Made by a program: the position numbers and the translations under genes
Shown here: in pieces, positions 1,825 to 57,916 of the stretch
Layout: each line of letters opens with the position of its first letter
Numbering within the stretch: the stretch's first letter is position 1
From: a phage
DNA length: 64,000 bases
Strand: one strand, 5' to 3'
Assembly (NCBI GenBank): GCA_019338205.1
Contig: GCA_019338205.1_4761.1
Notes under the pieces: model-generated
Seen by the model: the letters and a program-made list of their open reading frames with translations, nothing else
The model's database searches: none
Told to the model about the DNA's origin: nothing

Positions 1825-1839
1825 AATCATAAAAAGTTG

Positions 1840-1868
1840 TTGACAGGGGATCGCGTATCCCCTATACT
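1840..1868 (+). promoter_or_regulatory. sigma70-like early promoter with spacer palindrome GGGGATCGCGTATCCCC
   Basis: TTGACA 1840-1845, 17 bp spacer, TATACT 1863-1868. Confidence 0.6.
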
Positions 1869-1911
1869 ACACACATCAAAACGAAACACACTTTTCTTAA
1901 GGAGAATCAAA

Positions 1912-2190
1912 ATGAGCAACCTGTCTTTCGCTAAAGTAGAAATTTCCAAAACTCGCGGTGGCATCAAAATCAAAACTTCCAATATCACTTCCTGCCGTGG
2001 TTGCGTCCGGTTTGCGTTCGACTTGGCAGCGAAGCTGGGTATTAAAACCTTTACCGTTGAGAGCGGATCTAACTGGACCACTCTGATTGTTACTGCCGCT
2101 TGGATCAATGGTGAGTATGTAGAAAAGGCATACTTTGACATTTTCTATGACTACGAAGAAAAATGCTTTTATGCACTGCAAGACATGTAA
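1912..2190 (+). CDS. hypothetical early protein
   Basis: AAGGAGAATCAAAATG RBS; downstream of promoter 1840. Confidence 0.55.
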   Translation: MSNLSFAKVEISKTRGGIKIKTSNITSCRGCVRFAFDLAAKLGIKTFTVESGSNWTTLIVTAAWINGEYVEKAYFDIFYDYEEKCFYALQDM

Positions 2191-3706: not shown

Positions 3707-4138
3707 ATGGTTTATCCAACTCCTAGTAAGATTTACATTGACGATACTCATTTTCTTGTTGAAATTATGGGTATCAAGTTTAGCGGTAATGTTAAAATTG
3801 TAGAATGGGAATTACACGGTCAACCTGTAACCGATTATGACCATTATATCCCTTTCGGTGGCGATGATAACTTTGTTTCATTTGACCATGAAGGTTACAT
3901 GAACTTTGAGCAAGACGATGTACCTTTGTATCTGGCAATGATGGATATTCCTATTAAAACAGAATATACAGAGGGCGATTGCGATTGTTGCGGATACTAC
4001 AGCGTAACAGATATTAAGCTGCCATCCGGTAAAGAACTTTACAAAGAGGATCATTTCGGAAACTGCAATTTTCCTTGCGGCTGGCAAGAATTTTTCGAAC
4101 TTGTAGAGATTGAGCGAACTTATTTGAGGAAGGGATAA
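3707..4138 (+). CDS. hypothetical Cys-rich protein
   Basis: GAGGATTATATAATG initiation region; CDCCGYY and CNFPCGW motifs. Confidence 0.55.
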   Translation: MVYPTPSKIYIDDTHFLVEIMGIKFSGNVKIVEWELHGQPVTDYDHYIPFGGDDNFVSFDHEGYMNFEQDDVPLYLAMMDIPIKTEYTEGDCDCCGYYSVTDIKLPSGKELYKEDHFGNCNFPCGWQEFFELVEIERTYLRKG

Positions 4139-4950
4139 TGAAGAAAGCATTAGGTTTAATTCCCTATACTGGCAATAAGGAAAAGCTATTGCCAGGTGTT
4201 AGTAAGTATTTCCCTAAGCACTATAACCGCTTTGTTGATGCCTTTTGTGGCGGCTTGAGCGTGTCTCTGTACGTCGAAGGTGATGTGCTAGCTAATGACT
4301 ATGACCATCGTTTAATTGACGCTTACAAGGCCATTGATGCGTGTCCTGATCCGGTTTCTACAATCAAGCGGATTATTTCCGAGAATGGTTTGTCTCGTGA
4401 TGATAAAGATGCTTACATGGCATTCCGTAAGAAGTATAACGAGAATCCAGATCCGCTATCGCTGTTTGTGTTGATTCAGCATAGTTTTAGCAACATTAAC
4501 CGCCATAATCGCAAAGGTGAATTTAATGCTAACTTTGGTCGCCGGACTTTTAACGAAAACGCGGTAGAGCGTGTCCTGAATTTTAAAGAAGAAAACAAAG
4601 ATGGTCGAATCAATTTTACTTCTGGACGATATGACGAGATCGAGATCTTGCCAGGTGATTTCGTTTATTTGGACCCGCCGTACCTTATCACTTCTGCTGA
4701 ATATAATAAGTTCTGGAGTGACGAGGAAGAGATTAAATTCTATCGGTGGGTAGAATCTATTATGGCGCGTGGTTTTCAGTTTGGTATCAGTAATGTCACG
4801 CATCATAAGGGAAATGTAAATGATCATCTTCTTGACTTTATCAAGCGGAATGATTTAAACTGCGTCCTGTTGAATAAGACCTATTGCCTAGACCGTTCAG
4901 GCGGCAAGTCTTCTGATACGCAAGAAGTTTATGTAACTAACGTAGATTGA
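4138..4950 (+). CDS. dam: DNA N6-adenine methyltransferase (Dam)
   Basis: AdoMet motif DAFCGG and catalytic DPPY motif; size 270 aa like T4 Dam. Confidence 0.8.
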   Translation: MKKALGLIPYTGNKEKLLPGVSKYFPKHYNRFVDAFCGGLSVSLYVEGDVLANDYDHRLIDAYKAIDACPDPVSTIKRIISENGLSRDDKDAYMAFRKKYNENPDPLSLFVLIQHSFSNINRHNRKGEFNANFGRRTFNENAVERVLNFKEENKDGRINFTSGRYDEIEILPGDFVYLDPPYLITSAEYNKFWSDEEEIKFYRWVESIMARGFQFGISNVTHHKGNVNDHLLDFIKRNDLNCVLLNKTYCLDRSGGKSSDTQEVYVTNVD

Positions 4951-8449: not shown

Positions 8450-8471
8450 AGCGGGAGAAATCCCGCTTTTT
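8450..8471 (+). terminator. intrinsic terminator hairpin AGCGGGAGAAATCCCGCT + T-run
   Basis: stem-loop followed by TTTTT. Confidence 0.55.
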
Positions 8472-10352: not shown

Positions 10353-10384
10353 AGCCGATCCGAAAGGGTCGGCTTTTTCGTTTT
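10353..10384 (+). terminator. intrinsic terminator
   Basis: AGCCGATCCGAAAGGGTCGGCT hairpin + TTTTTCGTTTT. Confidence 0.7.
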
Positions 10385-11529: not shown

Positions 11530-11538
11530 AATAAATGC

Positions 11539-11567
11539 TTGACGGGGATCGCGAGATCCCCTATACT
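11539..11567 (+). promoter_or_regulatory. sigma70-like promoter with spacer palindrome GGGGATCGCGAGATCCCC
   Basis: TTGACG 11539-11544, 17 bp spacer, TATACT 11562-11567. Confidence 0.55.
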
Positions 11568-11609
11568 ATATTCATCAAGACGAGATACAACTTTACAGGA
11601 GAATCAAAT

Positions 11610-11762
11610 ATGTGGACTTTACTGATTTGGGAAACTGAAAACGCACAAGTAGAAATCCGTGAATACGAATACCTAAGCCCAGCTTATCTATTAGCATCTC
11701 GCGGTGGTTACTATAAAGCGCAGATTGTAAACGAGTTCGGGGTGATTGAATATGAGTTCTGA
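11610..11762 (+). CDS. hypothetical small protein
   Basis: 50 aa ORF with GGAGAATCAAATATG RBS, downstream of promoter. Confidence 0.4.
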   Translation: MWTLLIWETENAQVEIREYEYLSPAYLLASRGGYYKAQIVNEFGVIEYEF

Positions 11763-14583: not shown

Positions 14584-14849
14584 TCGAGATATACGGTATA
14601 CCGAAAGAGGCTTATCATTGTTATGGTTGTATTAGTGCAATGAAGCTACTGGATGATCTGGGTATTCCGTATACACTTAAACCAGTATTCAAGCCGGTCG
14701 GGGTTGACATTATTCCCGACCGTGATATGATTGAAGAACTGGCGGGGAGGCTAAACTCAAAGAGCCTCCGGTTTGTATACCCCCAGATATTCATTGACAA
14801 CGAGCACATTGGAGGCTATAAAGAACTGAGGGCGATTTATGATTATTGA
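14580..14849 (+). CDS. glutaredoxin-like protein (NrdH-like)
   Basis: CYGC active-site motif near N-terminus; ~89 aa. Confidence 0.6.
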   Translation: MIEIYGIPKEAYHCYGCISAMKLLDDLGIPYTLKPVFKPVGVDIIPDRDMIEELAGRLNSKSLRFVYPQIFIDNEHIGGYKELRAIYDY

Positions 14850-18971: not shown

Positions 18972-19000
18972 TTGACGCGGGGAGAAATCCCCGTTATACT
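18972..19000 (+). promoter_or_regulatory. sigma70-like promoter with spacer palindrome GCGGGGAGAAATCCCCG
   Basis: TTGACG 18972-18977, 17 bp spacer, TATACT 18995-19000. Confidence 0.55.
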
Positions 19001-19025
19001 CTCTAAAAATTGATGGGAGGTTATT

Positions 19026-19277
19026 ATGATTACTGACACACTGAAAGAATTTAACGCAAGTTTAGAGAAGTTTACTAAGATCCGAGTTTTTGAGGTTGTT
19101 CGGAATGGTCAACATATGCTATCCTTCCGTTCTAATTACGGGATGTGGACACATGATGAAATTCCTTTCGACCGAGACAATATCACTAGACTGGAACTAG
19201 CAACCATCGTATCCCGTAAGGTTGCTGATATTACCCAGAATGTTATTGCTCGTGGGTCTATGGAGTCTGTACGATGA
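19026..19277 (+). CDS. hypothetical protein
   Basis: 83 aa ORF with GGGAGG RBS. Confidence 0.5.
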   Translation: MITDTLKEFNASLEKFTKIRVFEVVRNGQHMLSFRSNYGMWTHDEIPFDRDNITRLELATIVSRKVADITQNVIARGSMESVR

Positions 19278-49506: not shown

Positions 49507-49516
49507 AAAATAGTTG

Positions 49517-49545
49517 TTGACAGGGGATCGGCGATCCCCTATACT
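49517..49545 (+). promoter_or_regulatory. sigma70-like promoter with spacer palindrome GGGGATCGGCGATCCCC
   Basis: TTGACA 49517-49522, 17 bp spacer, TATACT 49540-49545. Confidence 0.6.
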
Positions 49546-49576
49546 AAACTCATCAAGACAACGAAGGAGAATCAAA

Positions 49577-49732
49577 ATGAAACATACTCACAAATTAATG
49601 GTTAAATTTTAAGGCGCTAAAGGATATGAACGTTACGGTGTATTCTTCTCTGAGGATGATGCATGGAATGCTGGTCTGGCAACGTTCGCCGAGCACAACA
49701 ACATTGAAGACTTTACTGTAGAAGAAATTTAA
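49577..49732 (+). pseudogene. small ORF interrupted by an in-frame TAA (candidate pseudogene or readthrough)
   Basis: Promoter + AAGGAGAATCAAAATG, 11 codons, TAA at 49610-49612, then 39 in-frame sense codons to TAA 49730-49732. Confidence 0.35.
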
Positions 49733-54748: not shown

Positions 54749-54786
54749 TTAAAATCCTTAGCGGGGATTTCTCCCCGCTATTTAAA

Positions 54787-57849: not shown

Positions 57850-57916
57850 TTTATAAAATCCTTAACGGTTGTTAGAATAATATTATTTAGAAAAGCGGGG
57901 ATTATCCCCGCTAGAA

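Follow-up and report, generated by a model that had tools for sequence, protein, structure and literature searches.

Spacer hairpins of four early promoters in a Krischvirus genome correspond to published PeSL cassettes

Four promoters with a palindromic spacer in the window (the whole 64,000-nucleotide stretch of phage DNA analyzed, contig GCA_019338205.1_4761.1) were best explained as PeSL (promoter-early stem-loop) cassettes, each combining an early promoter, a hairpin in read-through RNA, and patches of homology for recombination. The probability of this explanation was put at about 85%. The element is one already described as the PeSL, and the only new part of the earlier note was its coupling of spacer GATC sites to Dam methylation. 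The anatomy of the sites, their non-random layout, their identity with published PeSLs, the retention of stem arms beside variable loops, and the indel and flank breakpoints at the cassettes were all read directly from the sequences. The window was 96-97% identical over tens of kb to approximately 60 Krischvirus genomes, including RB49, phi1, JSE, ECD7, and kaaroe; it is a Krischvirus, i.e., an RB49/phi1/JSE-like T4-type coliphage.

Anatomy and non-random layout of the four sites

Direct reading of the window gave four near-consensus sigma-70 promoters on the + strand, which agreed letter for letter with the stretches quoted in the earlier note: TTGACA-GGGGATCGCGTATCCCC-TATACT at site 1 (1840-1868), TTGACG-GGGATCGCGAGATCCCC-TATACT at site 2 (11539-11567), TTGACG-CGGGGAGAAATCCCCGT-TATACT at site 3 (18972-19000), and TTGACA-GGGGATCGGCGATCCCC-TATACT at site 4 (49517-49545). 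In all four, the 17-bp spacer was occupied by a GC-rich hairpin of 6-8 bp.

Cassette 1 (1825..1914, +) lay in the phi1 ORF071/070 intergenic region. The upstream stop codon ended at 1824 and was followed by an AT-rich UP region, the -35 box (1840-1845), the -10 box (1863-1868), a Shine-Dalgarno sequence (SD) at approximately 1900, and an ATG at 1912 on the same strand. Its hairpin, A-GGGGAT-CGCGT-ATCCCC-T (1845..1863, +), had a 7 bp stem, a 5-nt loop, and a single GATC at 1849-1852. Cassette 2 (11530..11612, +) corresponded to phi1 ORF054/053, with the -35 box at 11539-11544, the -10 box at 11562-11567, and the ATG at 11610; the hairpin GGGGATC-GCGA-GATCCCC (11544..11561, +) had a 7 bp stem, a GNRA tetraloop, and GATC at 11547 and 11555. 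Cassette 3 (18972..19028, +) was found at gene 47/ORF038, where the stop codon of gene 47 adjoined the -35 hexamer (18972-18977); the -10 box followed at 18995-19000 and the ATG at 19026. The site 3 hairpin, CGGGGA-GAAA-TCCCCG (18978..18993, +), had a stem of 6 bp (7 with a G.U pair), a GNRA tetraloop, and no GATC. Cassette 4 (49507..49579, +) lay in the phi1 ORF264/263 region upstream of ORF263, with the -35 box at 49517-49522, the -10 box at 49540-49545, and the ATG at 49577; its hairpin, A-GGGGATC-GGC-GATCCCC-T (49522..49540, +), had an 8 bp stem, a 3-nt loop, and GATC at 49526 and 49533. Site 1 thus carried one GATC, sites 2 and 4 carried two each, and site 3 carried none, which bore out the earlier statement that GATC is present at three of the sites.

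The earlier note had placed the palindrome entirely in the interval from the -35 to the -10 box. The palindrome does sit in the spacer; the "entirely" did not hold, as every stem reached one base into the -35 hexamer (its last) and, at sites 1 and 4, also one base into the -10 hexamer (its first). The upstream genes' stop codons ended 0-15 nt 5' of the -35 box, hairpins began 5-20 nt past the stop codon, and A+T content was 64-80% over the 25 nt upstream. Past the -10 box came an AGGAG/GGAGG SD and then an ATG at a distance of 25-43 nt. The ORFs downstream of sites 1-4 were 92, 50, 83, and 11 aa long, the 11-aa ORF being truncated, and their phi1 counterparts were annotated as hypothetical ORFs. 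The ORFan downstream of site 4 (49577-49612, on to approximately 49730; homologous to the 51-aa phi1 ORF263) had a GAA-to-TAA nonsense change at codon 12 that left an 11-aa ORF in an otherwise intact reading frame.

A conserved ribosome-binding region, AGGAGAATCAA(A)ATG, was found at 1900-1911, 11597-11609, and 49565-49576 of the window and in most phi1 PeSLs, and it includes GGAG. GGAG is the motif cut by T4 RegB. A regB gene was annotated in phi1, and early PeSL transcripts may therefore be RegB targets.

Other arrangements of stem and promoter also occurred in the window. Stems overlapped the -10 box at 2517, 5742, 7888, 41298, 41667, and elsewhere; the -35 box was enclosed by stems at 14704 and 25789; and at 10353/10391 a terminator lay directly upstream of the promoter.

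The promoter layout with a palindromic spacer is distinct and far beyond chance. TTGAC-N18-TATACT occurred five times in the window, always on the + strand, against 0.04 expected, and GGGGATC-N0-6-GATCCCC occurred twice against 0 expected. The hairpins formed by the spacers of the four sites had stems of 7-8 bp and energies of -9.3 to -13.7 kcal/mol; equally stable folds arose in at most 6 of 2000 shuffles of the same bases. By these tests the promoter class proposed in the earlier note was non-random. When 19-mers were drawn at random from the phi1 genome, which was put together from four fetched loci, 0.56% had a perfect stem of at least 6 bp; 11-12 in-spacer hairpins were found among 78 strong phi1 promoters, against 0.43 expected. 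Altogether 78 of 84 strong phi1 promoters were on one (early) strand, the strand of all four sites. A hairpin scan across the entire window did not find a further in-spacer hairpin, and an Rfam scan of the entire window matched no family.

As a control, 58 IMG/VR matches to gttgTTGACA-N17/18-ATA(A/C)T-acac were collected with any spacer. Folds below -8 kcal/mol were those of four Krischvirus class-A promoters and L034 (5/58), and the idea that phage promoters at consensus have such a hairpin as a rule was rejected. Since promoters with the same flanks and any spacer rarely fold, the hairpin is a specific feature. A MAFFT alignment of 19 distinct in-spacer hairpin promoters, which were chosen for their hairpins, left sites 2 and 3 one column out of register; enrichment against random 19-mers was used in place of a formal pair count on this alignment.

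Conservation and published counterparts

Orthologues in seven genomes had invariant stem arms and variable loops. The 5' arm GGGGATC was invariant among all orthologues examined, while site 1 loops were CGCGT, CACGT, GGC, or GCC and site 4 loops were GGC, GCC, or GGT. The site 2 hairpin was identical in 7/7 genomes and its promoter region in 6/7 (the phi1 -35 box was TTGACT). The site 3 hairpin was 100% conserved in five genomes, in two of which the downstream ORF was only approximately 80% identical. The phi1 in-spacer hairpins formed three stem families, namely: GGGGATC..GATCCCC (eight copies); GGGGAG-GATAA-CTCCCC (two copies); and CGGGGA-GAAA-TCCCCG (two copies). Every 4-nt loop was a GNRA loop in the sense orientation (GCGA, GGGA, GAAA).

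In scans of IMG/VR, the sole requirement on the spacer was GGGG-N9/10-CCCC between consensus hexamers. The inner spacers of other lineages were also self-complementary and differed in sequence, for example GGGGAGAGATTCTCCCC, GGGGGCATAATGCCCCC, GGGGGACAAGTTGTCCCCC, GGGGCGGCCCGCCGCCCC, and GGGGATGAACAATCCCC. Their sources were an S-PM2-like cyanomyovirus, the jumbo Serratia phage BF, and phages of approximately 40 kb with Ralstonia-phage-like terminases. The three stem families and the complementary-but-different stems elsewhere suggest that structure, rather than a particular sequence, is what matters.

Five non-T4-like IMG/VR contigs (L008, L009, L012, L017, L022) had a common cassette: TTGAC(N), a palindromic spacer, TATACT, ttccacactaacaa..ctaggggaaa, and ATG. 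Their terminase was approximately 70% identical to that of Ralstonia-phage-like genomes of approximately 40 kb. The spacers of these contigs differed by compensatory changes (GGGGGCATAATGCCCCC, GGGGGACAAGTTGTCCCCC, GGGGGGCATATTGCCCCC), and both the upstream and the downstream genes were swapped between contigs. PeSLs were described in T4-like phages; the cassette of these contigs resembles a linker of PeSL type beyond that group. Four other entries, from jumbo and large phages (L089, which is the 357 kb Serratia phage BF, and L085, L086, and L094) contained TTGACA-GGGGAT(G..)ATCCCC-TATAAT promoters followed by "ccatcgac/ccatcaac" and an SD. This stretch resembles the initial transcribed sequence of Krischvirus PeSLs, and GATC was found in none of these promoters.

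PeSLs were described by Arbiol et al. (2010; Genome Biol Evol 2:140; PMC2839356), at approximately 52 per genome in RB49 and phi1. Their cassette combines an AT-rich region and a consensus sigma-70 promoter with a polyG/polyC stem-loop, and it has an SD and an ATG at its 3' end; the place of the stem with respect to the promoter takes five different forms (PMC2839356). The hairpin was assigned a terminator or attenuator role at the RNA level and, in addition, a role in recombination (PMC2839356). The RB49/phi1 stem was later summarized as "GN-loop-CN" (Comeau et al., 2014; PMC4122927). Nolan et al. (2006) cite 5'-end mapping that confirmed early promoters of RB49.

The PeSL features readable from sequence were found at the window sites, namely: genus and strand; promoter and AT-rich region; stem-loop; SD, ATG, and ORF; and association with indels. 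RB49 PeSL211/210 reads aaaaaagttg-TTGACA-GGGGATCACGTATCCCC-TATACT-acacacatcaaaacgaaacac, and one loop base was its sole difference from window site 1 over the stretch that begins with the -35 hexamer and extends into the start of the transcribed region. The spacer of RB49 PeSL206/205 is GGGGATCGGTGATCCCC; both functionally tested RB49 PeSLs (211/210 and 206/205) have GGGGATC-type spacers.

Proposed working of the cassette

The promoter and terminator activities of PeSLs are taken from the literature, where the examples are RB49 members of the GGGGATC family. According to the article text, the RB49 PeSL206/205 promoter gave approximately 13,000 Miller units, i.e., it was very strong, and most clones acquired down-mutations in the -35 or -10 box (PMC2839356). 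The same text states that the RB49 PeSL211/210 stem-loop, placed between a strong promoter and lacZ, cut expression about as much as rrnB T1, in a terminator assay of a single construct presented in a supplementary figure (PMC2839356).

The proposed order of the cassette is an upstream stop codon, an AT-rich UP region, TTGACA, a G(n)-loop-C(n) hairpin, TATA(A/C)T, ACACACATCAAnAC, AGGAGAATCAA, and the ATG of a small ORFan. The initial transcribed sequence ACACACATCAAnAC was conserved among the cassettes. On DNA, the cassette would act as a very strong early promoter for host sigma-70 that drives the downstream gene. The hairpin lies upstream of the start site of its own promoter, and it is therefore transcribed only in read-through RNA from the upstream gene. 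In that RNA it may serve as a terminator, an attenuator, or a 3'-end hairpin that insulates adjacent early transcription units. Within a consensus promoter, the spacer alone is free of sequence constraint; this would account for the placement of the hairpin there, and such a placement would hold the intergenic region to approximately 70-90 bp. The conserved cassettes would double as patches of homology for recombination and gene conversion, by which ORFans may be shuffled. GATC would be a signature inherited by one hairpin sub-family (GGGGATC..GATCCCC) and not part of the functional core.

Intrinsic terminators were called on a GC-rich hairpin followed by at least 5 U in 8 nt. The hairpin part was present at the four sites, and a U tract directly past the hairpin was absent at 4/4; the next 8 nt held 3-4 U, the tails being UAUACUAC, UAUACUAU, UUAUACUC, and UAUACUAA. 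The terminator scan of the window flagged 0/4 sites, yet it detected true terminators at 10353 and 17865. Without a canonical U tract, efficient intrinsic termination is not predicted from the sequence. The word "terminator" depends on the reporter assay in the literature, and it is safer to speak of an attenuator or 3'-end hairpin. Canonical terminators made of a GAAA-loop hairpin and a U tract were present at 8450, 10353, and 17865 of the window, and these, together with the GNRA loops in the sense orientation, hint at selection on RNA in the direction of transcription. We infer that what is selected in vivo is termination or attenuation.

Free-standing hairpins with nearly the stem and loop of site 3 were found at 8450-8467, 54759-54780 (- strand), and 57894-57912. 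They included AGCGGGA-GAAA-TCCCGCT followed by TTTT and, on the minus strand, TAGCGGGGA-GAAA-TCCCCGCTA. Their near-identity indicates that the site 3 hairpin belongs to a terminator-type family reused across the genome. A strand-specific RNA folding signature was not found among 43 hairpin-bearing phi1 promoter regions (21 sense versus 22 antisense; Wilcoxon p = 0.37). The flanks contribute noise in this comparison, and the stems themselves are perfect Watson-Crick palindromes.

Breakpoints between relatives fell at the cassettes. A 282-bp phi1-specific segment (ORF263.1) had its end exactly at the site 4 -35 hexamer; site 2 had a replaced or swapped upstream flank in phage SSG23 / L081; and site 1 in some relatives had the site 4 spacer or a one-base variant of it. 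From these alignments the cassettes appear to be recombination joints.

If the PeSL explanation is right, there is nothing new to explain and the sites are textbook PeSL cassettes, which are thought to insulate early transcription units in T4-type phages and to drive modular ORFan shuffling there. For annotation, early promoters and likely recombination joints would be marked by the four sites and by the hairpins that overlap a -10 box (2517, 5742, 7888, 41298, 41667, and elsewhere).

GATC sites, alternative explanations, and known systems

The earlier note had proposed that a spacer GATC couples promoter strength to methylation by the phage's own Dam. The ORF at 4138-4950 (+) was indeed a full-length homologue of T4 Dam (PDB 1yfj, E 1.6e-64; PF02086), as that note had stated. 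The dam gene would give the proposal a context, and it need not imply action on the cassettes. Two further DNA methyltransferases besides dam were annotated (phi1 ORF143 at 76 kb and ORF189 at 117 kb; RB49p189). A 2026 paper reported modified cytosines in some Krischvirus isolates and their absence in a relative more than 99% identical (PMC13390438). A text search of PMC2839356 for GATC, dam, and methyl returned zero occurrences.

On this proposal, host or phage Dam would set the strength of the promoter by methylating the GATC sites of its spacer. Injected DNA, being fully methylated, would for instance be active, and replicated DNA in its hemimethylated state would be less active or sequestered by SeqA. 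GATC was present in eight of approximately 12 phi1 in-spacer hairpins, and the constancy of the GGGGATC arm among orthologues is compatible with the proposal. The comparison of spacer GATC with the genome background that the earlier note had suggested went against it in the window: three of 33 strong promoters had a spacer GATC against approximately 2.6 expected, and the 358 GATC sites of the window (observed/expected 1.03) were neither avoided nor enriched. In phi1, 15 of 78 promoter spacers had GATC against 6.3 expected, with sites clustered at spacer positions 4-5 (12 sites) and 11-12. GGGG (14 versus 1.8 expected) and CCCC (13 versus 1.1) were enriched far more than GATC in the same spacers. 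GATC is self-complementary, so that its presence in one arm of a stem brings with it a second copy in the opposite arm, and the three window sites with GATC are paralogous copies of one cassette, which makes them one observation and not three.

Six of the phi1 GATC sites at positions 4-5 belonged to PeSLs without an in-spacer hairpin, which could be counted in favor of Dam coupling. These were the early-strand phi1 PeSLs at 120301, 2833, 119522, 58391, 47351, and 132291, of the form TTGACA-nn(G)GATC...TATAG-CATAAT. Their spacers aligned with class-A spacers as decayed or rearranged copies (e.g., CCAGATCACGCCTATAG versus GGGGATCACGTATCCCCTATA), and independent selection for GATC at positions 4-5 was not preferred for them. 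All 30 "core" PeSLs have homologous flanks in common. Given this likeness and the homologous flanks, shared descent is the simpler explanation of the clustering, and the GATC in phi1 spacers probably descends from class-A spacers. Treating the spacer types as independent would make the positional clustering in phi1 formally significant, but their independence is improbable.

GATC was also dispensable for the layout of the cassette. It was missing from four of the approximately 12 phi1 in-spacer hairpins (GGGGAG..CTCCCC and CGGGGA-GAAA-TCCCCG) and from all analogous elements found outside Krischvirus (the cyanomyovirus, Serratia phage BF, and other contigs), including those with GGGGATG..ATCCCC stems. 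Among close relatives it was gained and lost: the 3' arm of site 1 had TATC, phi1 118817 had GGGGTC, and window 41667 had GGACC where phi1 has GGATC. It was found at spacer positions 3-7 and 11-15 only and did not overlap the -35 or -10 hexamers. To our knowledge, known Dam effects require either overlap with a hexamer or a methylation-sensitive binding protein. The sequence mark of a Dam-regulated promoter, a GATC in a hexamer or regulator site that is conserved as GATC, was not found here. With GATC at background, dispensable, and never in a hexamer, Dam-set promoter strength is very unlikely, and coupling through GATC appears not to be supported beyond the sub-family signature.

A narrower version concerns the Krischvirus GGGGATC sub-family, in which the two spacer GATC sites are 7-8 bp apart and positionally conserved. 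This pair might have been co-opted, either to be read by Dam, SeqA, or MutH and tune early-promoter use on parental (fully methylated) versus replicated (hemimethylated) DNA, or to stimulate PeSL recombination through nicking by MutH. We consider such a co-option a long shot.

Also improbable is that the palindrome is a site on double-stranded DNA, an operator or recombination site, for a dimeric phage protein such as an early-promoter shut-off factor or a recombination helper. GGGG/CCCC arms are present in nearly all PeSL stems, and RB49-type phages are without MotA and middle promoters, which leaves early-promoter shut-off to explain. Arbiol et al. raised a specific DNA-binding protein, speculating that it recognizes GGGG...CCCC and acts in recombination (PMC2839356). 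The dimeric regulator suggested in the earlier note nevertheless fits poorly. Inverted half-sites with a fixed sequence and a fixed centre-to-centre distance, as expected of a dimeric operator, were not found: the G4 and C4 blocks of the four sites were 6, 9, 9, and 10 nt apart, and the inner bases of the arms differed (ATC, AG, A). GNRA loops would be irrelevant to the binding of duplex DNA. The same kind of stem occurs at five promoter-relative positions and overlaps the -10 box at window 5755, 7900, and 41298; an RNA hairpin fits this range of positions better than an operator of fixed geometry.

Least likely of all is a role as DNA structure, with cruciforms or folded single strands at forks cut by endonuclease VII (gp49) or gp46/47 to make recombination hot spots, as stems of 6-8 bp with loops of 3-5 nt would be too short for stable cruciform extrusion. 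PeSLs do coincide with indels, flank swaps, and spacer conversion, gp49 and an SbcCD-like gp46/47 are encoded in the window, and PeSL stem-loops block sequencing polymerases on single-stranded templates (PMC2839356), but 50-90 bp of shared sequence explains PeSL recombination equally well. According to Arbiol et al., less than 50 bp of homology is enough for recombination in T4 (PMC2839356).

The PeSL explanation was set beside four known systems. Promoters sensitive to Dam methylation include the IS10 transposase promoter pIN, finP/traJ, pap, and agn43. As in the window, GATC lies within the promoter region and a Dam enzyme is present. In those systems the GATC overlaps the -10 or -35 box or is part of an Lrp, OxyR, or Fur site, whereas the window GATC is in the spacer; the window cassette has no known partner protein, and GATC is dispensable for its architecture. 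Intrinsic terminators share with the window hairpins a GC-rich stem, often a GNRA loop, and a position few nt past a stop codon. They have a U tract, and the window hairpins instead have the -10 hexamer, UAUACU, after the stem.

The PeSLs/PmSLs of T4/PST and KVP40/nt-1 (PMC4122927) are likewise linkers of promoter and stem-loop; they are found in T4-like phages, within hyperplastic regions, and are implicated in modular shuffling. Unlike the window elements, their stems are just upstream of the promoter and AT-richer (A3-4G3..C3T3-4; AGNA..TCNT), and their promoters are off consensus. The closest counterpart was the in-spacer subclass of the RB49/phi1 PeSLs. These elements share with the window sites the same genus, an upstream stop codon in an AT-rich region, a promoter close to perfect (TTGACA-N17-TATAAT/TATACT) whose spacer holds a G(n)-loop-C(n) hairpin, conservation of the SD and ATG, a downstream ORFan, and an association with indels. 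Between the in-spacer PeSLs of RB49/phi1 and the window sites there was no structural difference.
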